From sequence record NC_025445.1: DNA of 40,981 nucleotides. The stretch is one strand, 5' to 3'. This DNA comes from Escherichia phage J8-65. The notes below the pieces were generated by a model, which was given only the letters and a program-made list of their open reading frames with translations, was not told where the DNA came from and did no database searches. The translations under genes and the position numbers were made by a program. This document shows, piece by piece, positions 17,166 to 40,650 of the stretch (positions are counted from its first letter, which is position 1; each line of letters opens with the position of its first letter).

Positions 17166-17174
17166 GGGGATGTG

Positions 17175-19604
17175 ATGGATTTGCTGGCAGAACAGATTCG
17201 ACTGGAAGAAGAGGCGCGTGCCCGTCACCGGGCAGGCTGGTTAGATAACGTACGAGATGCGATAGACTCAGGCCGCGCCTCGGCGGTGCCACTGTTGCAG
17301 CGAGCGATGGTTGAGGCATACCCCACTGTCGAAGCTGCAATGCTGGATATCCTGAACGAAACTACTCGTGGGTTCGGTGCGCAGTACCGCACGTATCTTC
17401 GTGAAGTTGGGGCCAAGACCTGTGCGTCTCTGGCCCTGAGCATGGCGGTGTCCGGCGCGACCGGGCGTACCGCCGTGACTCAACTGCTCCGCGAGATGGG
17501 GCAGGCAATGATGGCTGAGGTAGTCTATGCGAGAGCTGAGAAGGCTGGCAAGCGCGAGGCTGCGTACATGGAGAAGGTTCGCCGTGACGTGAACAAGTCC
17601 AAGTCCAAGTCGCCGAACCACATCTACAACAAGGCACGCGCTGCCTCAGCCAACGTTGGTGTCGAAACTGAAATCCTGCCACAGCGTGCGCTCATCACAA
17701 TCGGCAAGTTGATGATGCGTGCTGTCGAACCGACTGGTCTGGTCAAGACTGTCCGAGTCGGCGGTAGCTTGAAGAACCGGGCGACGGCGCACTTCGCTCT
17801 GCATGACGATGTGCTCATCATGCTTGAGGATTGGATGAAGCTGCCACACCTCGGCATCAACTGTTACCCACCGCTGATTGTGCCGCCAGCTCAAATCAAT
17901 GCGAATGGCTTCGGCGGTATGTGGCACTCTCCGGGGCAGGCAGCGACGTATGTGGCAATCAGCAAGCTCAAGCACCCGGCGTACCGTAAGTTAGGTATTG
18001 ACCCACTGCCAGTGATTGAGCCGTGCATGATGCTGTCGAGCGTTCCGTTCCGCGTGAACAAGATGGTGCTGGAGTTCCTGCAAGCCAACCGAACCGGGGT
18101 GATGGGGTTGCCTGTTGCGCCAGTAGAACCGAAGCTGCCGTTCACTATCCCGGAGGGCGTAACGTTCAGCCAGTACATCAGCAAGTTCCCGGCTGAGATG
18201 CAGCAGCGTATGGATGCTGAGGCACACGAGTTCAAGGTCAAGACTCGCATCTACCACAATGACATGAAGAAGTTCACCACGCAGATTCAGGCACTGAGCA
18301 GTGCGCTGCGCGAGGCTGAGCAGTACAAAGTGTACGAGCGAATCTACCTGCCGACGTACGCCGACACCCGTGGCCGTTGCTACTATGCCTCAGCCCTGAA
18401 CCCGCAAGGCATTGACGCAATTCGTGCTTTGCTTGAACTGGCCGACCCGGTGCCGTTGGGTAAGGAGGGTCTGTTCTGGTTGAAGGTTCATGTGGCCAAC
18501 TGCTTCGGCTATGACGCTACAGACTTTGAAGACAGGGCAGCGTGGACTGATAAGACAATGCCGCGACTGCGCGAGGCTTGCCGTCTGCCGGAGGCATACG
18601 ACTCGTTCTGGTCTGAGGCTGACAGCCCACTGTGTGCATGGGCGGCTGCGGTAGAGCTGGTGCGTGCGCTGGATAGCGGGAACCCGGAAGAGTATCCGTG
18701 CCGCGTGGTGACGCAATGGGATGCAACATGCTCAGGTCTGCAACATCTCTCCGCAATGCTGCGCGACGAGGTGGGTGGTGCTGCGGTCAACCTGATTGAT
18801 TCCGTAGGACGTAAGGCAGACATCTACGTTAAGACCGCTACAGCGGCTCTGGAGGCGTTAAAGGAAGCAGAGGCAACCAACCCTACGGTCTTGGGTTCGT
18901 GGCTCGTACAGACGGGCATAGAGCGCGGCATGGCCAAGAAGCCTGTGATGACTTATGTGTACGGTGCGACACGCCACGGCATGGTGGATTACTATGCTCT
19001 GTATTTGCGAGAGCACAACACTCCGCTGCCGGAAGGGTACACCCTGTTCCAGTGTGCAATGTACATCGCCGGGTTCATGTGGGATGCAATTCCTCGCGTG
19101 GTGCCGAAGGCTGCTGAGCTGATGGCGTGGCTGCAAGCTATCGCATCGGAGGCAGCGGCTAACGGGGAGTACGTGGAGTTCACTGCTCCGTCTGGTCTGC
19201 GCATGGTGAACATGTATCAGGCTCACAAAGAAACCACTATGGGTATCAAGCTGATGGGTGTTCATGCCATCAAGCTGCGCGAGTACATCGACAAGCCAGA
19301 CGGTCGCAAATGTGCGGCTGCGATTGCTCCGAATTTTGTACACGCGATGGATGCCAGCCACATGATGAAAGTTCTGTGGGAGATGTGGAATAACGGGATT
19401 TACATGGTGTCTATCCATGATTCATTCGGTGTTGCAGCGGCTCATGCAGGTCTACTGCACAAAGTCATCCGTGAAAAGTTCGTGCAGATGTACGAGGAAC
19501 ATGACCCGATTCAACAACTTGCTGTGAGATATTCTAAGGAAGCTCCGGCGCGGGGTCAGTTGGATATCAACGAGGTCAAGAAATCCTCCAAATTCTTCTG
19601 CTAA
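17175..19604 (+). CDS. single-subunit DNA-directed RNA polymerase, T7-like (809 aa)
   Basis: ATG 17175 after AAGGGGA; WDATCSGLQHLSAM, KKPVMTYVYGAT and SIHDSFG match T7 RNAP motifs A, B, C. Confidence 0.92.
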   Translation: MDLLAEQIRLEEEARARHRAGWLDNVRDAIDSGRASAVPLLQRAMVEAYPTVEAAMLDILNETTRGFGAQYRTYLREVGAKTCASLALSMAVSGATGRTAVTQLLREMGQAMMAEVVYARAEKAGKREAAYMEKVRRDVNKSKSKSPNHIYNKARAASANVGVETEILPQRALITIGKLMMRAVEPTGLVKTVRVGGSLKNRATAHFALHDDVLIMLEDWMKLPHLGINCYPPLIVPPAQINANGFGGMWHSPGQAATYVAISKLKHPAYRKLGIDPLPVIEPCMMLSSVPFRVNKMVLEFLQANRTGVMGLPVAPVEPKLPFTIPEGVTFSQYISKFPAEMQQRMDAEAHEFKVKTRIYHNDMKKFTTQIQALSSALREAEQYKVYERIYLPTYADTRGRCYYASALNPQGIDAIRALLELADPVPLGKEGLFWLKVHVANCFGYDATDFEDRAAWTDKTMPRLREACRLPEAYDSFWSEADSPLCAWAAAVELVRALDSGNPEEYPCRVVTQWDATCSGLQHLSAMLRDEVGGAAVNLIDSVGRKADIYVKTATAALEALKEAEATNPTVLGSWLVQTGIERGMAKKPVMTYVYGATRHGMVDYYALYLREHNTPLPEGYTLFQCAMYIAGFMWDAIPRVVPKAAELMAWLQAIASEAAANGEYVEFTAPSGLRMVNMYQAHKETTMGIKLMGVHAIKLREYIDKPDGRKCAAAIAPNFVHAMDASHMMKVLWEMWNNGIYMVSIHDSFGVAAAHAGLLHKVIREKFVQMYEEHDPIQQLAVRYSKEAPARGQLDINEVKKSSKFFC

Positions 19605-19687
19605 TTTAGTCTTATATTTCTTGCACTTAATGAAAGTAACTGTTCTGGTATACCCAGATTACTCTCGTAGTGCATTGGAGATTCTCT

Positions 19688-19870
19688 ATGAAAGACTCAC
19701 CATTAGACAGAGTGACGTTCAACAAAGGACAACTAGCTCTCTTAGAGAAAGCATTCGGTACATGGGAGAAGGTAGGGAAGACCATCACCCATGAATCAGA
19801 TATCTCACTACTGAATAGAGAAGCAGGTAAACAGGACGTGTTGGACTTCATCCGTGAAAGGACTGTGTAA
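19688..19870 (+). CDS. hypothetical protein (60 aa) in low-GC island
   Basis: ATG 19688 with GGAG RBS; atypical low-GC codon usage. Confidence 0.5.
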   Translation: MKDSPLDRVTFNKGQLALLEKAFGTWEKVGKTITHESDISLLNREAGKQDVLDFIRERTV

Positions 19871-20289
19871 TGAAAGTATCTGTAGTGGACAACATACATC
19901 ACACCACGATGCCAATCGACATTCGGATTGCTGTAGCCAAAGGTATACAGGAAGAACGCCAATGGTCTGATTTACCGTGGGATGTGATAGTAGACGCCAT
20001 GTATGATGCCACCGCCAACGGATGCACTGATGTGTATGTCCACGATTCTGACGGTGCTCTCATGGGCTGTGCTCATCTCGGTGAGCTGTTCGATATTCAT
20101 GTGGGGCCGTGTGCCGTTGTAATGGCTATGTATGTATGGCCCCAGTATCGCAACCGGGGAGTGACCCGTCTCATCCTCCGCGAACTCAAACGCGCTGCCC
20201 GGCAAGCTGGGTTGCGCTGGTGCGGTTACTCCCACATGGTACGTCCTTATGTTCAGGAATACCGATTCATTGATTTGGAGAAACCGTAA
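19870..20289 (+). CDS. hypothetical protein, possible GNAT-like fold (139 aa)
   Basis: VVMAMYVWPQYRNRGVTRLILREL resembles GNAT motif A region; low-GC. Confidence 0.45.
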   Translation: MKVSVVDNIHHTTMPIDIRIAVAKGIQEERQWSDLPWDVIVDAMYDATANGCTDVYVHDSDGALMGCAHLGELFDIHVGPCAVVMAMYVWPQYRNRGVTRLILRELKRAARQAGLRWCGYSHMVRPYVQEYRFIDLEKP

Positions 20290-24422: not shown

Positions 24423-24971
24423 GTGACTCTACTCGAAGCAGTAAACATTGTTCTTCGGGCATTGTCTGAGCACACCGTATCCTCGACTGAGATTCGAAAC
24501 CCGTCCGTCACTCTTGCCCTCGACAAGATTGCCATCGCACAGGAAGAGGTTCTCACTGACGGTTGGTGGTTCAACAACATCCGAATCACCATTCCACGCG
24601 AGTCGGATGGTCGAGTCAAATACCCCGCAGACGCACTGAGCTTCATCCCGGATGGGTTTGAGTGTATCGTGCGAGGCGGGTATCTTTACAACGCCCAATC
24701 CCAAACCTTTGTTTTTACTGAGGATGTTCCGGGATTGGTTACTTATGACCTTGAGTGGGATGACCTTCCAAGTCCAGTCCAGCGACTGGTTGCGTATCAG
24801 GCAGCCATCTCTGCGTATGCTGATGATATGGGAGACAATCCTCCGGTGTCGGTTACTGGCGGCTATGCGAACGCATTGCAACAGTGCCAGTCTATCCACA
24901 CCCGTCAACGTCGATTCAATGCTCGCCAGCGTCAGAGCTGGTGGCGATATGAGAGTGCTCGGAGAGGATAA
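24423..24971 (+). CDS. tail tubular protein A (182 aa)
   Basis: GTG start 7 nt after AGGAG; N-terminus parallels T7 gp11; position. Confidence 0.75.
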   Translation: MTLLEAVNIVLRALSEHTVSSTEIRNPSVTLALDKIAIAQEEVLTDGWWFNNIRITIPRESDGRVKYPADALSFIPDGFECIVRGGYLYNAQSQTFVFTEDVPGLVTYDLEWDDLPSPVQRLVAYQAAISAYADDMGDNPPVSVTGGYANALQQCQSIHTRQRRFNARQRQSWWRYESARRG

Positions 24972-27415
24972 TGCCAGTTTACCAAGGCTCGTATAAATCC
25001 ATCCTCGGCGGCGTAAGCCAGCAGGTCTATACTGACCGACAGCTATCGCAGGTTGAGGAACAGGTCAACATGACCTCCGATACCGTTCGTGGCCTGCGCA
25101 AGCGCCCCGGCACTCGCCTAAGTCGTGACGTAAGTTCGACCAACGCGACTGTATGGAGCCTTGGAAATTTTGGCCACCTCCGGTTCTACACCACTAACTT
25201 AGGGTGGGGGATTACCACGTTCATCGTTAACACGAAGACCGGGTACGTGACCTCCATTGTAGAGACAGAGACTGTCCAGTTCATGGGGCAGTCGAATTAT
25301 CTCATCGCAAATAACCCCGACGACATTGTATTCACGACCGTGGGCAACACCATGTACGTTGCCAACTGTTCCAAGCTGCCCGTGCTAATCGAGAACGAAA
25401 CGCGAATGAATCCGGGTCGCCGGGGTTACTATTTCGTGCTGGCTGGTTCCTATGGGAAGCAGTACACAGTGCGCGTACAGACCACGCTCGGTGCCGTGAG
25501 CGCAACGTACACGACGCCCAATGCAGACCAGACCAGTGCGTCTGACCATGCAACGCCAGAGTACATCATCAGCCAGCTCAAGTCTCAGCTCGACGCCGCT
25601 GTGGGTGGTGCTTCTGGTCTTGAGATTGTTCAGGCTGATGGTGCGTACCTGTACCTGCAATGCACTGAGGCTGCGGCAGATATGAACGTGTCAACCTCGA
25701 CAGGTTCAACGTACGCCATTGCATCCAACACCCACACTGTAGACCTGACCACAAAGCTCCCGGCGAGACTGCCTGCGGCGGCGGGTGGGTTCATCATGAC
25801 TGTGGGCGACGCCAGCTTCGCTCAATACTTCCAGTGGAGTTACAATGACTCGCGCTGGGTTGAGAAAGGTGCCTACGGTTCCCCGACCGGGATTAACCCA
25901 AGCACCATGCCGCTGGTGTTCAAGACCTCCGCTACCACGAATCAGCACACTTTCGCTCAGGGTAGCTGGCCGGGCCGCTTGGCTGGTGATGACCTGACCA
26001 ATGCCATCCCTGCATTCACCGATGCGAATGGTGTGGGTATCACTGGCTTGGCCTCGTTCCAAGGTCGCCTGATTGTATTTAGCGGCCCGTACATCACAAT
26101 GGGTTCCAGCAACAAGGACGACCGGAACAACTTCTTCCGCACCACTGTTACGCAGGTGCTGGACGATGACCGCATTGAGTTCACAGCATCCAGCTTCGCC
26201 GGGGCTTCGTTCCGGTACGGGGTGCCGTTCAACTCTGACCTGATTCTGGCCAGTGAGGAACACCAAGCTGTCATCCCCGGACGCAACCAAATCCTGACGC
26301 CGAACAACGCCACCGCCGTGTTGACCTCGACGTACCAGATGGACACCGGGGTATCGCCGACCACCTCTGGCCGCAGCCTGTATTATTCGTACCCGCGCTC
26401 GAACAGCTCGTTCTCCGTCAAGGAGATGCTGCCGTCCGGTTACACGGATTTGCAGTACGTGAGTCAGGACGTGACCGACCACCTGCCGACTTATCTGGAA
26501 GGAGCTAACAGCTACATCTCTGCCAGCACCACGAACAACATCGTCGTGTTCGGCTCGACCACTGAGAAGTCCACGCTATACGTGAACGAGTACCTCTGGT
26601 CAGGCGATGAGAAGGTGCTGTCGTCTTGGCATCGCTGGGAGCTATACGGCACCATCCACGCCGCATGGTTCGTCCGTGAGGTTCTGGTTGTGCTGGTTGA
26701 GCAGCAGGGCCACATGAACATGCTCACGCTGTCCATGCGAGATTCTCCAGACCCGACTGACCCGACGCGTTTCCTCCCGGCAACGGATTACAGCCAGCTC
26801 ATGACTGTGACCAACCCGGCGACGGACAGCTCGTACATCCAGTTCGCGGCTGACGGAATCCAGAAAGCGCTGTGGGATATCATCCAAGCCCGGTATCTGG
26901 CTGATGGCAACTGGGATTTCATGACCACGGTTGTGCCGTCCGGCCAGTACATCGGTGCCGAGGTTGGTATCAAGTCCATCGACACTGCGAACCGACGTGT
27001 GTACCTGCAACCTTCGTACGGCAGCACATCGCTGTATGTGGGCCTGCGATTCACTGCAACGTTCAGCCCTACGCCGCCGAGAATCTTCAACGGCGACGGT
27101 TCGTATATGGACGTGAATAAGATGGTCATCATGCACTACAACTTCACGTTGCGGTACACGAGCCTCTTCACCATCACGGCCAGTGACCGTGGGGCGTACT
27201 CCGCACTGAACATCATCTCCAGCCCGATTCGGTACACGAGTCAGGAGCTGGGTCTGGAGTCAGCAACTCTGGCGAAGCGTGCGCACCTCAAAGTGCGTAT
27301 GGGTCTGGAGGTTGAGTCCAGCAGCATGGTGGTCACGTCCACTACGGCAGGCGACCTGAACATTCAAGGTTTAGGTTATTACATCAAGTTCTATAACAAG
27401 GTTCGGAGAATTTAA
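24971..27415 (+). CDS. tail tubular protein B (814 aa)
   Basis: size (T7 gp12 ~794 aa) and position. Confidence 0.8.
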   Translation: MPVYQGSYKSILGGVSQQVYTDRQLSQVEEQVNMTSDTVRGLRKRPGTRLSRDVSSTNATVWSLGNFGHLRFYTTNLGWGITTFIVNTKTGYVTSIVETETVQFMGQSNYLIANNPDDIVFTTVGNTMYVANCSKLPVLIENETRMNPGRRGYYFVLAGSYGKQYTVRVQTTLGAVSATYTTPNADQTSASDHATPEYIISQLKSQLDAAVGGASGLEIVQADGAYLYLQCTEAAADMNVSTSTGSTYAIASNTHTVDLTTKLPARLPAAAGGFIMTVGDASFAQYFQWSYNDSRWVEKGAYGSPTGINPSTMPLVFKTSATTNQHTFAQGSWPGRLAGDDLTNAIPAFTDANGVGITGLASFQGRLIVFSGPYITMGSSNKDDRNNFFRTTVTQVLDDDRIEFTASSFAGASFRYGVPFNSDLILASEEHQAVIPGRNQILTPNNATAVLTSTYQMDTGVSPTTSGRSLYYSYPRSNSSFSVKEMLPSGYTDLQYVSQDVTDHLPTYLEGANSYISASTTNNIVVFGSTTEKSTLYVNEYLWSGDEKVLSSWHRWELYGTIHAAWFVREVLVVLVEQQGHMNMLTLSMRDSPDPTDPTRFLPATDYSQLMTVTNPATDSSYIQFAADGIQKALWDIIQARYLADGNWDFMTTVVPSGQYIGAEVGIKSIDTANRRVYLQPSYGSTSLYVGLRFTATFSPTPPRIFNGDGSYMDVNKMVIMHYNFTLRYTSLFTITASDRGAYSALNIISSPIRYTSQELGLESATLAKRAHLKVRMGLEVESSSMVVTSTTAGDLNIQGLGYYIKFYNKVRRI

Positions 27416-33800: not shown

Positions 33801-33948
33801 TGCGACTGGCGGTTCCCTGCTGTCGGGTGATATTGACCAAGCTGGGCATGATGCTCGCAAAGCTGCGGGTAACATCATTCAAGCACTTCCCCTCATTTCC
33901 ATTGTGCCGGGTGTCCGAGCACTCAACGAAGCAGTTAAGGGCGAATAA
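30847..33948 (+). CDS. internal virion protein C (1033 aa)
   Basis: largest structural ORF, position as T7 gp16-like ejection protein. Confidence 0.7.
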   Translation: MITQESLDKFMAPKQGANAPTLVIPAPVKAETLSTPLQDATRQGAVEQFEKMQELEATPIATALSASVKNWDTTQLFDAAFNKPTFQADPNFKPNEALQQVQFPIGEDDRTFLFKSKSMDEFNWRTQQLQEMRERTQLAQTAPVMNAVLQFADPLYLATDLLSMGAGTALKLGRLGTAAVGAASTAAAMTAVGNEARPVSQNEIIFAAALHGAATTAFYRPAPVQRSLADMSPEEFAAEMQRRNGIDPNNPPQFDPENAMAPLAMSLGFGGRRGAMEVDEVPESIRATAQRGLDLARRGEQTNPKRPFLEWSLFKTFSQHSDESSALAGRLLDDPLNPNMTSAASIQRETQARFGVLLNQYEDTLRHALNTDGWTNVRRFVDPVGYRRAQQEFEQAVRLELDRRMIDPNFKGANANVAQAADRLGEYSRAVGRELEAKGMVEPGFVEKNPYYYPRRMNVTKVEQAEQLLGKKAFMKQMTTAVQRGIGSDRPTANVIAHAMVERARRKGYGIDNSGHIINKEGRDELLEIINNAKGFDEAAKARASALLREAGEDSGRAPMLKARINIDMMHQLGPNLQVRDLFDDSIASMMDSYNRRITGRLALHEAGLGTDAERAAAREALAKSIPDGNARRQALDQYDNIISYYMGAPVGEEMPQFMRQLSALTQATGLAASGLWQLVEYGTMMQRFGAVNTFRAMMRTVPEARALFKQMRASTVEGRQLALDTEEALTAAVASDIRMRPIMQHYDDMFSADKSPWVMRMEHLRDATMFINMQKYIHFHQTRTNAALVMQTLRKAAEGDAKAIAAMKTYGANDQLLADIRKEVGKSGTKPDAWDEGVFNRSRIVMMNAMDDAIVRARVGELPAFAEFSTLGKFLFTFRRFVAATHNKTLVGTWNREGARGLATLMAYQYPLAMMATAANNVISGKGFDDKRPIGALAGQALNYLGAIGFASEFTGVLTGQQRSFGAPGLLFLDRMYGIAGATAATGGSLLSGDIDQAGHDARKAAGNIIQALPLISIVPGVRALNEAVKGE

Positions 33949-36332
33949 TGGCCAATAGCTACAACGCATACGTGGCAAACGGAACGCAGACCGCGTTCCT
34001 TGTCACCTTCGAACAACGAGTGTTCACGCAGATTCAGGTGTACCTTAACTCCGAACTCCAGACGAGTGGGTACACCTACAACTCCGTGACCAAGCAAATC
34101 ATATTTGATACCGCCCCGCTCGCCGGGGTGATTGTCCGACTACAACGGTACACCTCAGAAGTGCTGCTGAACAAGTTCGGTCAGGATGCTGCCTTCACTG
34201 GTAGCAACCTCGACGAGAACTTTGAGCAGATTCTCTTCAAGGCAGAAGAGACGCAGGAAGCATGGCTGGCTCCGCTTGACCGTGCCCTGCGCGTACCGAA
34301 CTCTGAGGTGTCAATCAACGCACTGCCTAACGTCGCAGGCCGCCGCAACAAGGCGCTGGGCTTCGACAACAACGGCCAACCCTTCATGGTGCCGCTGGTT
34401 GATATACCCGACTCTGCGCTGGCTATCGCGCTGGCGATGAATGACGGCGGTAAGTGGATTGGTACTCTCGGCGGTGGCACATTCCTCGACCGTCAGGATA
34501 CTGTCTGCCTGTCTGAGTTCACCAACAACACTGGTTACGCCTCTGTCGCCGCTGCGTGCCAAGCCTGCTTCGACTACGCCAAAGCCAACAACAAGGTTGT
34601 GGACGCTCGCGGTTGGGAAGGTACTGTGAACTCAACCATCACTATGGATGGTATCGAGGTTGTCGGCGGTACGTGGAACGGCACAGCGGATATCCGTCTG
34701 CTGAATGCTACGTTCCGCAACTTCTCTGCATCAAAGGTTCGTGTCTGCTACTGGGGCGGTAATGTACGCATTGCTGATTACGAGTTCACTGACCACCCAT
34801 CGGCATCGAAAGTTGCCAGCATCCTGTTCCAAGGCAACATCGCCGGGGGCAGCTACGTCATTGAGAACGGCGTACACCGCAACGGTTACTTCGGTATTCT
34901 CCAGCAGGGTACTGGTGAGGCCATTGATAACGGTGTGATTCGCAACATCGCTCTGATGGATATGTCCGGCGACGGCATTGAGATGAACGTAATCAACAAG
35001 CACTATGACGGTGGCCTGTCGATTGAGAACATCTACCTCGAAAATATCAACGGTATCAACCCAACCTCCAACCCATCCTTCGTCTCCAACTGGGGTATCG
35101 GGATTGGTCTGGCTGGTCAAGGGCCGTTTGGCTGGGATGCTGCTGAGACCCAGTACGCGAAGAACATCACAGTCCGTGGTGTCCATGCTCCGCGTGGCGT
35201 GCGTCAGGTCATCCACTTCGAGGTGTCCAAGAACTGCTCGGTGTACGACGTACACGCTAACCCTGACCTTACTGTCTCCAACGGTACAGGTCTGACGGCT
35301 GCTGGCGTTATTACCTACGGCTGCAAGGATATCGTCATTGACGGCGTGTACGGTGAGCCTATCGTGGGCAGCACAGGTACTGACCCGGCTGCTGTGCGTC
35401 TCGTGATGTGCGAGTGGGGTTCCAACCAAGCAGGTGCTGGTGGCGTGCCGGGTGCATCGAACCCATCGTTCAACATGACCCTGCGTAACATCTACACCAA
35501 GACTGGCCGTATCTACGCTGGTATTGGTTCCGATGATGTGAACACCAACGTGTACCACCTTGAGAACATCCACTGCTACCGTCTGAGCCTCTTCGGTGTG
35601 GCCACCATCCTGAACATGACCAACGTGACGGGTGTTGACTTCGACTGCGTAGGCGATGACTCCAGCGGCGGTACGTCCTCCAACGGTGTGTACCCGCGAC
35701 GCAAGACCGTCCTCAATATGGTGAACGTGAACTTCTATGGCCCCGGCAACACCGAGGGTGCCCTGTACAGTAAAGCTCGCTACTCGGATATCAGTACGCT
35801 GAACTCCAACGTGCGTGCTATTCCGTACACCAACATCCAAGGTGACGTCGGCGTTATCCTGTCTCCGGTCAACCGTATGTACACACTGCCGAACGACCTC
35901 GCAACTCTGACTGGTGGGGAGTTCCCGACTGGTAAAGAGTTCTGCGAGGGTACGGTACTGTTCAAGACGGACGGTACAGGTGGTAACTTCATCGTGACCC
36001 GGTTCGGTGCCTACATCCCGGACGACGGCAACAACTTCAAGGTGCGTGCTGCTGCCGCTGGCCAGACGTATCTGGAGCAGAACCTGACTCCGGCTGGTAC
36101 TCAAGCCTCGACCTCGTGGCTGTATCATAAGCCTATCTCTGCTGGTACTCGCCTGAACATTCCGGGCGCAGGGCCAAGCGGCGGTACGCTTACGGTCACT
36201 GTGATGCGAGCGCCGTATCAGGTAGACAACAACATCGGGAACCCGGTGCGCATTGATATCAGCCCGGCAATCGTAACTGCGATTCCGGCAGGTACTCAGC
36301 TCGCCGCCACGTACCCGGTCGCATTCATCTAA
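33948..36332 (+). CDS. tail fiber / tailspike with probable beta-helix depolymerase domain (794 aa)
   Basis: N-terminal ~120 aa parallels T7 gp17 tail-attachment domain; central region has repetitive NG/GG-rich beta-helix-like repeats. Confidence 0.75.
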   Translation: MANSYNAYVANGTQTAFLVTFEQRVFTQIQVYLNSELQTSGYTYNSVTKQIIFDTAPLAGVIVRLQRYTSEVLLNKFGQDAAFTGSNLDENFEQILFKAEETQEAWLAPLDRALRVPNSEVSINALPNVAGRRNKALGFDNNGQPFMVPLVDIPDSALAIALAMNDGGKWIGTLGGGTFLDRQDTVCLSEFTNNTGYASVAAACQACFDYAKANNKVVDARGWEGTVNSTITMDGIEVVGGTWNGTADIRLLNATFRNFSASKVRVCYWGGNVRIADYEFTDHPSASKVASILFQGNIAGGSYVIENGVHRNGYFGILQQGTGEAIDNGVIRNIALMDMSGDGIEMNVINKHYDGGLSIENIYLENINGINPTSNPSFVSNWGIGIGLAGQGPFGWDAAETQYAKNITVRGVHAPRGVRQVIHFEVSKNCSVYDVHANPDLTVSNGTGLTAAGVITYGCKDIVIDGVYGEPIVGSTGTDPAAVRLVMCEWGSNQAGAGGVPGASNPSFNMTLRNIYTKTGRIYAGIGSDDVNTNVYHLENIHCYRLSLFGVATILNMTNVTGVDFDCVGDDSSGGTSSNGVYPRRKTVLNMVNVNFYGPGNTEGALYSKARYSDISTLNSNVRAIPYTNIQGDVGVILSPVNRMYTLPNDLATLTGGEFPTGKEFCEGTVLFKTDGTGGNFIVTRFGAYIPDDGNNFKVRAAAAGQTYLEQNLTPAGTQASTSWLYHKPISAGTRLNIPGAGPSGGTLTVTVMRAPYQVDNNIGNPVRIDISPAIVTAIPAGTQLAATYPVAFI

Positions 36333-36341
36333 GGAGTAATC

Positions 36342-36632
36342 ATGGCATCCGTGAATAAGCAGCTCGATGGGCTGCACCGGATGCTGGTTGAGTATCTGAC
36401 CACTCGGCTGTCTGAGTGCATGAAGCCCGGTAACGAGCCAATGCCAGCAGCCGAGCTGTCGGTACTTCGCCAGTTCCTGAAAGACAATGGCATCCAAGCA
36501 GATGCTGACCACGCCGACGACCTGCTGGCGCTGCAAGAGCAGCTCAACAAAGAGAAGTCGGATACGGAGCGGAAGTCCATCATGGACTCTGCCATCAAAG
36601 CAATTGCAGAAGATAGCGGGATGATGCACTAA
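36342..36632 (+). CDS. terminase small subunit (96 aa)
   Basis: size and position as T7 gp18; AAGGAG RBS. Confidence 0.7.
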   Translation: MASVNKQLDGLHRMLVEYLTTRLSECMKPGNEPMPAAELSVLRQFLKDNGIQADADHADDLLALQEQLNKEKSDTERKSIMDSAIKAIAEDSGMMH

Positions 36633-38392
36633 TGGATTTACAACGCCGCATGGTGATGGCAGGAATCGTTCGCGCACACTACGAGAACAACTTCCCGCTG
36701 TTCCTGCATGACTACTTCGCATGGCTGGGCTTTGACCTCACTGAAATGCAGCTCGATATTGGCCGCTACATGGCCGACCGGACGCTCAAGAACAAGTGCG
36801 TCATGGCTCAGCGCGGTGAGGCCAAGTCCACCATCGGCATTGCCCGTGCCCTGTATGAGTTCGTCCAGATGCCTAACGCCACCGTGCTGCTGGTATCTGG
36901 TTCTGACGACTATGCGGGTACGCTCTCGCACGCCATCGTATCTGCCATTATGCAATGGGACAGGTTGGAATGGCTGCGCCCTGAAACTCGCGCTGGCGCA
37001 CGTACCTCTTATACAGACGGTTTCGATGTACACCACGCATTTCGTATTCCTGATAAACAGCCCTCTGTCAAAGCGGTCGGTATCTTCGGCCAGTTGCAGG
37101 GGAACCACGTATCGCTGTTGATTGCCGATGACGTGGAGACTACCAGTAACGGTAGCTCTCCTGCCAACCGCGCCCGTATCAACACCCTGACCAAAGAGTT
37201 CGCGGCTATCGCCAACGACGGCGCAGAGATTCTGTACCTCGGCACGCCGCAGACTCAGGATTCCATCTACAACACGCTCCCGCAGCGTGGCTTCGACGTT
37301 CGCATCTGGCCCGGTCGTTTCCCAACGGTTGAGGAAGAAGAACGCTACGGCGGCTGTCTGGCCCCGTGGATTAAGCAGAAGATGGATGGCCACCCTGAAC
37401 TGCGTACTGGTTACGGTATCCTTGGGAACCGTGGTGCGCAGACTGACCCTCAGCGTTACTCCGAAGAGAAGCAGCTACAGAACGAACGAGACTACCAGCA
37501 GGCAGGCTTCCAGCTACAGTTCATGCTGGACACGTCGCTGTCAGATGCACTGAAACAGACTCTGCATATCCGGGATGTTATCTTCTTCCACGGCTCGCCG
37601 CAGTCTGCACCGGAGTATCTGCACTGGTCGAATCATTCGCGTCACTTGGCCGAGCTGCCAATGGACTTCCCACTCGCTCGCGCCCAGCTCTATCTGGCCG
37701 CTGACTTCTCTGAGACGTATGTACCATTCACGAATACCAAGGCGTTTCTTGACCCTGCTGGTGGTGGGTCGGACGAATCCGTTCTCTTCGCCACAGCTTC
37801 TATCGGCCCGTTTATCCACGTCATCGGTATGCACGTCTACCACGGCGGCCAGACGGAAGAGAACATCAAGGCGGCGGTAGAGTGGTGCCACGAGCTGGGT
37901 GTCCAGCACATCACCATTGAGGACAACATGGGCCACGGTGCCGTGACCAACATGTACCGTGGTGAGATTAAGCGTCAAGGACTGACAATCGGCTGTGAGG
38001 GTATTTACTCCAGCGGCCAGAAAGAAGTGCGTATCATCAATCGGTTGAGTCCTATCCTCCAGCGCCACCGCGTGGTAATCCACTGGTCGGTTGTTGAGGA
38101 AGACCTGCGCCTGTGCCGGGCCATGAACAACGGTGGCCGGGAATATAGCCTGTTCTGGCAGATGCAGAACTTGACGCAGGACAAAGGCTCCATTCCGCAC
38201 GATGACCGCATCGAAACCCTATCCGCTGCCGTGTATCTCCACGCCGAGGTACTCCAGCAAGACGAACATGAAGAGGCCCAAAAGCGTGAAGTGGCCGCCG
38301 CTCGTGAGTTTGTTGCCAACCCAATGGGGTACGACGACTCGAAGTGGCGCAGTCATAAGCGTGTCCGTGGCACTCGTCGGAGAATCCGCTAA
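36632..38392 (+). CDS. terminase large subunit (586 aa)
   Basis: same length as T7 gp19; ATPase-like N-terminus and DPAGGGSDES nuclease-like motif. Confidence 0.85.
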   Translation: MDLQRRMVMAGIVRAHYENNFPLFLHDYFAWLGFDLTEMQLDIGRYMADRTLKNKCVMAQRGEAKSTIGIARALYEFVQMPNATVLLVSGSDDYAGTLSHAIVSAIMQWDRLEWLRPETRAGARTSYTDGFDVHHAFRIPDKQPSVKAVGIFGQLQGNHVSLLIADDVETTSNGSSPANRARINTLTKEFAAIANDGAEILYLGTPQTQDSIYNTLPQRGFDVRIWPGRFPTVEEEERYGGCLAPWIKQKMDGHPELRTGYGILGNRGAQTDPQRYSEEKQLQNERDYQQAGFQLQFMLDTSLSDALKQTLHIRDVIFFHGSPQSAPEYLHWSNHSRHLAELPMDFPLARAQLYLAADFSETYVPFTNTKAFLDPAGGGSDESVLFATASIGPFIHVIGMHVYHGGQTEENIKAAVEWCHELGVQHITIEDNMGHGAVTNMYRGEIKRQGLTIGCEGIYSSGQKEVRIINRLSPILQRHRVVIHWSVVEEDLRLCRAMNNGGREYSLFWQMQNLTQDKGSIPHDDRIETLSAAVYLHAEVLQQDEHEEAQKREVAAAREFVANPMGYDDSKWRSHKRVRGTRRRIR

Positions 38393-39063
38393 TGTCTTTG
38401 ATTTCTATCACTAATCAGCAGCGGTACGATATTGGCTACCGTGCCAACATCGCCGCCAATCTGACCCAACGCTTCGTGAACAACACGAAGACACTGACGG
38501 CTGAGCAGGCTGCGCCAATCGACGCGGCCATTACCCAGCTCATGACGGCTCTGGAAGCCGCTGGCTACACCTCTGTACCGGAAGGCTCTGCCATCGTCGC
38601 AGACGGCGCTGCAACCACTGTGGTGAACGCGAACGGTACTGTGCAGAAGGCTGCCACCTTCGACGTTAACGGTGAGACGGTTACTGTCGCCCTGCCTGCT
38701 ACTGTCGGTATGAAGTCCAACAACGACTCCATCTCTGTGCAGAACGTGAATGGTGCGGCTGGTGTAACCTCCACCTCGTACGTGGACAGCAACGGTGTAC
38801 TGGTCGCCGCCCGGCTGCCAGCAACCACGGCTGTAATCGCCAGTGGCAACAACATCCAGATTCGCAACTCCGCTGGCACCGCCATCGGTAACGCGACCTT
38901 CACCGTATCCAACGGTGTCATCACGTACGGTACACTTCCTGCGACCATTGCTGGCGTAGCGAACGGTGCCACCCTCACTGGTGTAGCGCCGACTGGCACG
39001 TACACCAATACCGTAACCTTCACTGTCGCTGGTGGTGTTATCACTGGCATTGCACTGTCCTAA
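38392..39063 (+). CDS. beta-rich repeat protein, possible fibrous or receptor-binding accessory (223 aa)
   Basis: three internal repeats (ATFDVNGETVTVALPAT / ATFTVSNGVITYGTLPAT / VTFTVAGGVITGIAL); Thr/Val/Gly/Ala-rich. Confidence 0.5.
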   Translation: MSLISITNQQRYDIGYRANIAANLTQRFVNNTKTLTAEQAAPIDAAITQLMTALEAAGYTSVPEGSAIVADGAATTVVNANGTVQKAATFDVNGETVTVALPATVGMKSNNDSISVQNVNGAAGVTSTSYVDSNGVLVAARLPATTAVIASGNNIQIRNSAGTAIGNATFTVSNGVITYGTLPATIAGVANGATLTGVAPTGTYTNTVTFTVAGGVITGIALS

Positions 39064-39074
39064 CGGGAGATTTT

Positions 39075-39260
39075 ATGTCCTTAGCAACTTCTACCGCCGC
39101 TGAGCGTGCGGGACTGGTGGCGGCCTGCAACATGCTGGCCAAATACCTCAACGTGTACACGGAAGACTACCACCTGAATACGGCTGACACTGACCTGCTG
39201 GCTGAGCATCAGGTGTACATCGACCGTGTGAAAGCAGCTACGGCTGCCATCGACGCATAA
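39075..39260 (+). CDS. hypothetical protein (61 aa)
   Basis: GGGAG RBS; no TM segment. Confidence 0.5.
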   Translation: MSLATSTAAERAGLVAACNMLAKYLNVYTEDYHLNTADTDLLAEHQVYIDRVKAATAAIDA

Positions 39261-39270
39261 GAGGTAGCGT

Positions 39271-39762
39271 ATGAAACTGTCTCGGCTATTGGCCGGGGCA
39301 GTCCTCTCATTGTCTCTGACTTTGACGGGCTGCTCCGCAACTAGCGCACTGTCTGCTGTAACTTCGGCTGTCTCTCCTAACAAGCCGGAACTGACGGCAC
39401 AGGTAGGTGCAGAGAACACGAAGCAAGGCATCGGTGTGACTGCGAAACAGTCCGACGAAACCGAAGTCGGTGACGTATCAGGTAACGCGAAAGTGGATAC
39501 CGCTAAACAGGGTAGTAACGCTACGACCGTCAAGGACGTTACAGGCGGCTCTGTAAACGCTTCTAAGCAGGGGTCTCAGATGACCCAAGGGAACGTACAG
39601 GCTAAGACTGTTATCGTCTCACAGAGCGACCCACGCAGCCTATTGTGGGCATTTGGCATGGGCCTTACGTGTATTCTTGGTTTGGTAATGTGGTTTGTAC
39701 CATCTCCGTGGAAGAGGAAGGTAAGAGATGACGGAAGCAAAACGAAAGGAGCCGACTCCTAA
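39271..39762 (+). CDS. candidate unimolecular spanin: lipoprotein with C-terminal TM helix (163 aa)
   Basis: N-terminal signal with lipobox LTLTGC; C-terminal LLWAFGMGLTCILGLVMWFV TM segment then basic tail; topology as phage T1 gp11. Confidence 0.55.
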   Translation: MKLSRLLAGAVLSLSLTLTGCSATSALSAVTSAVSPNKPELTAQVGAENTKQGIGVTAKQSDETEVGDVSGNAKVDTAKQGSNATTVKDVTGGSVNASKQGSQMTQGNVQAKTVIVSQSDPRSLLWAFGMGLTCILGLVMWFVPSPWKRKVRDDGSKTKGADS

Positions 39763-40114
39763 CATCCACTCGCGTATGGGTGCAGTGGAGGCTCGTATGC
39801 AGACCGTAGAACTACGCCTCGACAAACACGAAGTGCAAATCGCTAACCTTGAGAAAGGCGACGCTGCGATGCTCACGAAGCTGGCTGAGAACGACTCGCG
39901 CTGGCAGCAGGTTCAGCAGCAGCTCTTGGTGGTCGAGCAGATTCAGGATATCCAGAGAACTATGAGCCATATCGGTAAGTTGTTTACGGCGGCAGCACAC
40001 GCCGTCAAATGGTGCCTGTTAACCGCATCCCTGTGCAGCGGTGTGTATTTAGCAATTAAGGCTGGCGACCTCACAGCTCTCCAGTCCTTTATCACAAGCA
40101 TTATGGGGATGTAA
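39728..40114 (+). CDS. lysis-cassette membrane protein, candidate atypical holin (128 aa)
   Basis: GAGGAAGG RBS; ~85-aa coiled-coil-like N-terminus then one hydrophobic segment WCLLTASLCSGVYLAI; sits between spanin and endolysin. Confidence 0.45.
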   Translation: MTEAKRKEPTPNIHSRMGAVEARMQTVELRLDKHEVQIANLEKGDAAMLTKLAENDSRWQQVQQQLLVVEQIQDIQRTMSHIGKLFTAAAHAVKWCLLTASLCSGVYLAIKAGDLTALQSFITSIMGM

Positions 40115-40650
40115 TGACTAACTTTGAAATCTGTATGAAGTTCACCGGGCTGGCAGAAGGCGGGTACACCAAGCTGCCCGGTGACACTGGAGGGGAAACG
40201 AATCATGGAATTAGCGACGCTCGTGATGGCAAACTGGATGGCCGAATTTGTGGTGTCCCTACTGGGCTTGGTGGCTCTATTTGTGTGCCTGTCAAACAGC
40301 TCACCAAAGAGCAAGCCAACGCTATCTACCGGGCCGAGTATTTCGACCCCATCAAAGGTGACGAGCTACACCCTGCGATTGCATGTGCCGTGTTCGACTA
40401 CGGTGTCAACTCCGGTATCAGCCGTGCGGCGAAAGCTCTACAGCGGGTATGCGGCGTTGCACAAGACGGGGTTATTGGCCCTGCAACCGTGGCAGCAGCC
40501 AAACGTCTGGAACCTCACTCCGCAGCAGCATCCATCTGTGACCTTCGTATTGCGTTCCTAAAGGCTTCTACAGCCCCGACAATCGTTCGGTATAGGGATG
40601 CCTTGGTTGCCCGTGCAAAACGCTGTAGCGCGTACTGTGCGACGTTATAG
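40114..40650 (+). CDS. endolysin, GH108 muramidase with PG_binding_3-like C-terminal domain (178 aa)
   Basis: N-terminal LAEGGYTKLPGDTGGETNHGI matches the GH108 EGGY motif; C-terminal region resembles PG_binding_3; no N-terminal SAR/TM segment. Confidence 0.75.
   Translation: MTNFEICMKFTGLAEGGYTKLPGDTGGETNHGISDARDGKLDGRICGVPTGLGGSICVPVKQLTKEQANAIYRAEYFDPIKGDELHPAIACAVFDYGVNSGISRAAKALQRVCGVAQDGVIGPATVAAAKRLEPHSAAASICDLRIAFLKASTAPTIVRYRDALVARAKRCSAYCATL

Follow-up and report, generated by a model that had tools for sequence, protein, structure and literature searches.

The 794-amino-acid (aa) protein encoded at positions 33948–36332 of Escherichia phage J8-65 (sequence record NC_025445.1, whose whole stretch of 40,981 nucleotides is called the window here) is very probably the single tailspike of this phiKMV-like podophage, built from a T7 gp17-type anchor, a short neck and a beta-helix module that cuts colanic acid. 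The gene is one ATG-initiated open reading frame (ORF) on the forward strand (as are all features below unless stated otherwise), complete with its stop codon, and it lies exactly where the initial annotation, made from the sequence alone, had placed a tailspike. An exact-sequence look-up found its product identical in every letter to AIM40542.1/YP_009101389.1, "tailspike colanidase [Escherichia phage J8-65]", an assignment also reached by homology. The gene is therefore already known and annotated, the phenotype of the phage has been published and a member of the protein family has a crystal structure.

The enzymatic body was recognized by several types of search. Residues 85–793 match the PHROG family phrog_6117 ("colanic acid degradation", E=1e-240), a sequence search of the PDB aligned residues 162–794 with the tailspike gp150 of phage Phi92 (6E0V/6E0W, E=1e-64), and the close homologues of the protein all have PF27800 in their precomputed annotation. 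By tblastn the identity is 98.2% to the "tailspike colanidase" of Escherichia phage smaasur and 86.9% to the "colanic acid-degrading protein" of phage NST1 (HM214492). A full-length AlphaFold2 (AF2) model, built from an alignment of 28 sequences, has per-residue confidence values (pLDDT) mostly of 85–97 over residues 185–794, with several dozen short strands. When this model was compared with the PDB using Foldseek, the best match was 6e0v_A ("colanidase tailspike protein gp150 of Phage Phi92", E=2e-35, TM score 0.68 on the target), followed by the tailspikes of HK620, Sf6, Dettilon and CBA120 and by depolymerase tailspikes of Klebsiella and Acinetobacter phages, all of them right-handed beta-helices. 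The initial annotation had expected a beta-helix depolymerase body and had named structure prediction as one way to check it, with a fibrous fold lacking an enzymatic beta-helix as the outcome that would speak against it. The homology to gp150, the AF2 beta-helix and the tailspike matches bear this expectation out, and since the predicted fold is a beta-helix, the contrary outcome did not occur.

Two domains can be delimited within the body. The predicted right-handed parallel beta-helix, the catalytic domain, covers approximately residues 215–626 (34590–35825) and has more than 30 short strands in the model. It is followed by a mostly beta C-terminal domain (residues ~627–794, 35826–36329), which is part of the colanidase module. 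Its alignment with Phi92 gp150 reaches the last part of that protein's chain (residues up to 621), its pLDDT is 62–96 and it has an invariant P739-G-A-G742 motif; it may serve in trimerization or sugar binding. The body had also been described as made of repeats rich in Gly, Asn and Thr. Compared with the other large proteins of the window, residues 121–794 are indeed enriched in Gly (12.6% versus 7.5%) and Asn (8.8% versus 4.4%), but Thr is only slightly enriched (7.9% versus 6.3%). As for the repeats, BLASTP of the body against itself gave the diagonal and no internal sequence repeats, so that "repetitive" holds for the structure (the rungs of the helix) and not for the sequence. A stretch inside the catalytic helix, residues ~361–520 (~35028–35507), has only 65–80% identity to NST1-type spikes (homologues P0002 and P0003) in windows of 40 residues, while its flanks have 85–98%; the invariant motifs within it are kept. 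This pattern suggests a mosaic or recombinant segment.

What this module does is known from the NST1 homologue, a colanic acid-degrading enzyme (CAE, HM214492) reportedly described by Firozi and co-workers in 2010. The recombinant NST1 enzyme frees reducing ends from purified colanic acid, as seen in the dinitrosalicylic acid (DNS) assay, and produces no monosaccharides (PMC9143390). The product of 1,148 Da was assigned by the authors to the repeat unit, the size of the polymer falls from 8.71 MDa to 107 kDa, and the slime layer around cells is dissolved (PMC9143390). Activity of a recombinant protein on purified polysaccharide, another check proposed in the initial annotation, is thus in print for an 86.9%-identical homologue.

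Candidate active-site residues were sought in the 28-sequence alignment, in which identities go down to 31% and which includes proteins on other anchors. The polar residues Q320, D342, E345, N347, W382, R419, Q420, H423 and E425 are invariant (28/28) and located in mid-helix rungs. D342 and E345 (34971–34982) belong to the motif G-D-x-I-E-x-N-V, which reads "gdaielnv" in gp150, W382 sits in W-G-I-G-I-G-x-A-G-x-G-P, and E425 (35220–35222) closes the motif R419-Q420-x-x-H423-x-E425; all three motifs are also conserved in Phi92 gp150. We propose from this conservation that D342, E345 and E425 are the candidate catalytic carboxylates of an endo-glycosidase, with E425 as a putative third residue acting in catalysis or substrate binding.

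The chemistry is most likely glycoside hydrolysis rather than beta-elimination, given that the product is a whole repeat unit, that the only uronic acid known in colanic acid lies in the side chain, and that the nearest structural relatives after gp150 (the endo-N-acetylglucosaminidase of HK620 and the endorhamnosidase of Sf6) are both hydrolases. Many beta-helix phage depolymerases are polysaccharide lyases (our Foldseek matches contain two of these, the Klebsiella K1 and K2 enzymes), and the DNS assay applied to the NST1 enzyme responds to new reducing ends whether a lyase or a hydrolase makes them. However, elimination at a side-chain uronic acid would leave the backbone whole, while here the polymer shrinks about 80-fold, and carboxylates, which a glycosidase would be expected to have, are what is invariant here; we consider a lyase very unlikely. 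Sutherland reportedly attributed, in 1971, the phage-induced hydrolysis of colanic acid to fucosidases; a literature search on this point returned nothing relevant.

Colanic acid, or M antigen, is a slime exopolysaccharide common across Enterobacteriaceae. The behavior of J8-65 itself connects the phage with this polymer. [quoted passage not shown] Its plaques on mucoid K-12 are turbid with large expanding halos, at whose periphery no J8-65 phage was detected, and it significantly lowers high-molecular-weight colanic acid (PMC4179555), so the halo formation that the initial annotation would have looked for had already been published. The same authors described the tailspike as "87% identical" to the NST1 colanidase (PMC4179555), which agrees with the 86.9% computed here. 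[quoted passage not shown]

By analogy with the NST1 enzyme, the substrate of the tailspike is very probably colanic acid, and not a serotype-specific K capsule or O-antigen; the earlier suggestion of a capsule or O-antigen receptor was right as to a polysaccharide depolymerase and wrong as to these two polymers. One could argue that the "colanidase" label arrived by annotation transfer and that the spike degrades another polysaccharide (K capsule, O-antigen or other exopolysaccharide), since phages of many hosts carry its more distant relatives, on other anchors, DepoCatalog puts two "colanidase-like" Klebsiella depolymerases in a structural class of their own, Class 5 (PMC13385381), and residues ~361–520 are those most divergent from NST1-type proteins. 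Against this stand the full-length identity to an enzyme with measured activity on colanic acid, and both the screen from which J8-65 came and its effect on the polymer, which together make another substrate extremely unlikely. K-12 is not known to make an O-antigen or a K capsule. Lastly, that the protein is a non-catalytic binding fiber, the halos coming from another phage product such as the 223-aa protein at 38392–39063, which has no assigned function, would fit with purified-enzyme activity being known from the homologue and not from the J8-65 protein, but the body is predicted to fold as a beta-helix and has invariant carboxylates, the 87%-identical homologue is active as a purified enzyme, and no further depolymerase-like gene turned up among the late genes searched, all of which reduces this to a nearly negligible probability.

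The body appears to be attached to the virion by an N-terminal domain of the T7 gp17 type (residues 1–107, 33948–34268), detected with Pfam, PHROG, PDB sequences, hhalign and Foldseek. PF03906, the T7 tail fiber N-terminal domain, matches residues 2–104 with E=7.2e-5 and 23.0 bits, under its gathering threshold of 25.2 bits; three homologues whose first 170 residues are ~92–94% identical (P0002, P0003 and P0006) have a precomputed PF03906.21 match. Residues 4–104 match phrog_11393 (tail fiber), and the PDB sequence matches of the anchor are HRP29 Gp44 and PhiM1 gp47. The N-terminal 170 residues, used alone as a database query, retrieved a single 171-aa protein, and anchors were taken from phage records instead; a profile of 18 of them aligned by hhalign with residues 1–200 of T7 gp17 (probability 95.9%, E=5e-9, residues 4–107 versus 7–118). 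Residues 1–170 also match by tblastn many Autographiviridae tail fibers, each annotated as fiber or gp17, among them those of LIMEzero, LIMElight, P-SSP7 ("17: T7-like tail fiber"), cyanopodoviruses, pelagiphages, Acibel007 and Bolek.

A separate AF2 model of residues 1–180 shows a small beta-sandwich that is confident over residues 1–70, and Foldseek retrieved with it the N-termini of fibers and spikes from solved tail complexes (HRP29 8es4 with E=3e-5, LME-1, 9efk, PhiM1 8vbx, Klebsiella Kp7 and Kp9, P-SCSP1u and 7y22). Matches in T7 itself were 7ey9_b, 7boz_b ([quoted passage not shown]) and 7ey7_a, with E about 1e-2, probability 1.00 and TM about 0.5. Because residues 73–130 are of low confidence in the model, the structural support is moderate. 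Overall, sequence profiles and model support residues ~4–107 as a tail-attachment domain of the T7 gp17 type, though one only distantly related to the rest of that family. The initial annotation had recognized the similarity to the T7 domain, which hhalign and Foldseek uphold, but had extended it to about residue 120, beyond the end near residue 107 found here.

Between anchor and helix lies the neck or linker with an N-terminal cap, approximately residues 108–214 (34269–34589), inside which the junction between modules is found. The neck holds a conserved motif, "RVP..E..I..LP....R.NKALGFD..G.P", common to the fibers of ROV85, HHU8, LIMElight and YeP5. Sliding identity to Lidtsur-type spikes is >90% up to about residue 200 and about 45% beyond about residue 240, and homology to colanidases with other anchors starts at about residues 160–200, with the gp150 alignment beginning at residue 162. 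The colanidase body, as assigned by the precomputed PF27800 annotation of homologues, is found behind PF03906, PF09008 (P22 head-binding) and PF18668±PF26208 (TSP1/Gp66-type) anchors. Conversely, the related phages HHU8 and ROV85 have an anchor and neck 41–44% identical to those of the J8-65 tailspike and no entry among the tblastn matches listed for the body, a pattern of matches that suggests a different distal part behind a kin anchor. Such combinations of anchor and body are the familiar cassette exchange of receptor-binding proteins, and the tailspike is a well-supported example of their modularity, the same colanidase body being carried on at least three kinds of anchor. A colanidase homologue of 47% identity is common to E. 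coli phapecoctaviruses and to the phage recorded as "Campylobacter phage B15" (150 kb), for which the host label is odd.

Some points weigh against a spike of this architecture and activity. The PF03906 score of the anchor is sub-threshold, and pairwise BLASTP of residues 1–170 with T7 gp17 gave no signal. The neck (residues 73–181) is poorly modeled, with low pLDDT; in the full-length model confidence is low throughout residues 1–181, owing to the mixture of anchor types in the alignment. The literature on the colanidase family yielded no experimental definition or mutagenesis of catalytic residues, and ours were picked out by conservation alone. The activity of the J8-65 protein is deduced from the 87%-identical enzyme and from whole-phage phenotypes, and its trimerization and docking geometry are solely what we infer.

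With this in mind, we can propose how the spike would work. Trimers would dock by residues 1–107 on the short tail, probably in a six-fold arrangement, where the gp11-like adaptor meets the gp12-like nozzle. The probable docking partners are encoded at 24423–24971 (tail tubular protein A, gp11-like adaptor; phrog_446, tail protein, E=2e-49) and 24971–27415 (tail tubular protein B, gp12-like nozzle; phrog_457, tail protein, E=2e-185), a role suggested by analogy with solved T7-type tail complexes in which matching fiber N-termini have been modeled. The colanidase module (residues ~160–794) would bind colanic acid and cut it endolytically into repeat-unit oligosaccharides, as shown for the homologue, through hydrolysis presumably catalyzed by the invariant carboxylates D342, E345 and E425. 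In this way, the spikes would hold the virion to the slime layer and, by digesting it, open a way down to the outer membrane, where a secondary receptor may trigger ejection. Excess free spikes released at lysis would diffuse outward and produce the expanding halos, which is consistent with the published halo observations (PMC4179555). A bolder reading, which we offer tentatively and hold to be rather doubtful, is that colanic acid is the obligatory primary receptor and that D342, E345 and E425 define the active site of a mechanistically uncharacterized family of glycoside hydrolases.

Phages with Escherichia, Enterobacter, Cronobacter and Kosakonia as isolation hosts have spikes >90% identical to this one. 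With colanic acid conserved across Enterobacteriaceae and near-identical spikes across genera, the module could, on that reading, give cross-genus adsorption. The gene provides an enzyme for removing the slime of colanic acid that shields enteric bacteria from other phages, and a close homologue is in use as an industrial and laboratory enzyme.

The genomic setting is that of a gp17-type gene. Genes for gp14-, gp15- and gp16-like internal virion proteins are directly upstream of the tailspike and TerS and TerL are downstream, and, the genome being one of the Autographiviridae and having gp11 and gp12 homologues, a gene placed behind those for the internal virion proteins fits the gp17 type. 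The ATG of the tailspike and the stop codon of the upstream gene, coding for a 1033-aa internal virion protein, overlap by one base (TAATG), and the Shine-Dalgarno sequence of TerS, which starts at 36342, overlaps the tailspike stop codon. A scan for sigma-70 promoters and terminators around the gene gave no sites exceeding shuffle expectation. From these overlaps and the lack of promoter- or terminator-like sites, the tailspike gene appears to lie in the interior of the late operon. J8-65 is a Bonnellvirus: the first 25 kb of its DNA are 95.6% identical over 97% of their length to phage smaasur, classified in the Autographiviridae, genus Bonnellvirus, species Bonnellvirus J865. One 794-aa member of the cluster of homologues, WP_052954283.1, bears the label "hypothetical protein [Enterobacter bugandensis]" and comes from a contig of 42,657 bp, which is probably a complete Bonnellvirus genome within a bacterial assembly.

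A 663-aa ORF on the reverse strand (34731–36722), which overlaps the tailspike gene, TerS and the beginning of TerL, was considered as a gene and rejected, its codons being in register with those of tailspike and TerS on the sense strand. No stop codon interrupts it because the tailspike gene (after codon 262) and TerS are without TTA, CTA and TCA codons, which make up ~0.4–1% of the codons in late genes, and it is most likely an artefact of codon bias.

Further along the window, the 223-aa protein at 38392–39063, encoded between TerL and the lysis genes, is rich in Gly, Thr, Val, Ala and Asn and matches only PHROG 9732 (unknown function, E=1e-63), with no Pfam match; it may have a virion-surface or fiber-like role. 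The adjacent 61-aa ORF (39075–39260) matches positions 1–56 of the same PHROG (E=9e-5), and judging by these matches the two neighbors may share an N-terminal segment. The endolysin (40114–40650) is of the GH108 type (PF05838, E=1.5e-21) with a sub-threshold PG_binding_3 domain, and upstream of it are an Rz-like spanin (39271–39762) and a phrog_35530 protein of unknown function (39728–40114) that overlaps the end of the spanin. GC content drops to 0.483 at 19001–20000 (0.53–0.61 elsewhere), by the end of the RNA polymerase gene (17172–19604), and the cumulative GC skew climbs to about 21 kb and is then flat, marking the boundary between early/middle and late genes.

Among known systems, the J8-65 tailspike colanidase AIM40542.1/YP_009101389.1 is the same gene with identical sequence. 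The closest distinct system is NST1 CAE, whose full-length identity of 86.9% includes the anchor and rises to 95% over residues 1–170; the divergence of about 13% is concentrated in residues ~361–520, and NST1 is known only from a single gene record. Phi92 gp150 has the same catalytic module from residue 162 to the C-terminus and is the top structural match, although the identity is only ~28% in the Foldseek alignment and Phi92 is a large myovirus whose spike has another N-terminal attachment region instead of a T7 gp17-type anchor. T7 gp17 (PF03906; 7BOZ, 7EY9) shares the homologous anchor (residues ~4–107) with matching fold and the same gene position, after the gp16-like gene. It differs in having a distal coiled-coil fiber with a tip domain, whereas the distal part of the J8-65 protein is an enzyme, and the J8-65 spike lacks the T7 "R-I-x-N-L...D-A-V" hinge, which LIMElight and YeP5 have behind the anchor and ahead of the RVP motif. 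Finally, the tailspikes of HK620, Sf6 and the P22 type belong to the same beta-helix fold class and are likewise virion-borne, receptor-destroying endoglycosidases, but with 9–12% identity, O-antigen substrates and a P22 head-binding anchor, an anchor type (PF09008) that some members of the colanidase family also carry.

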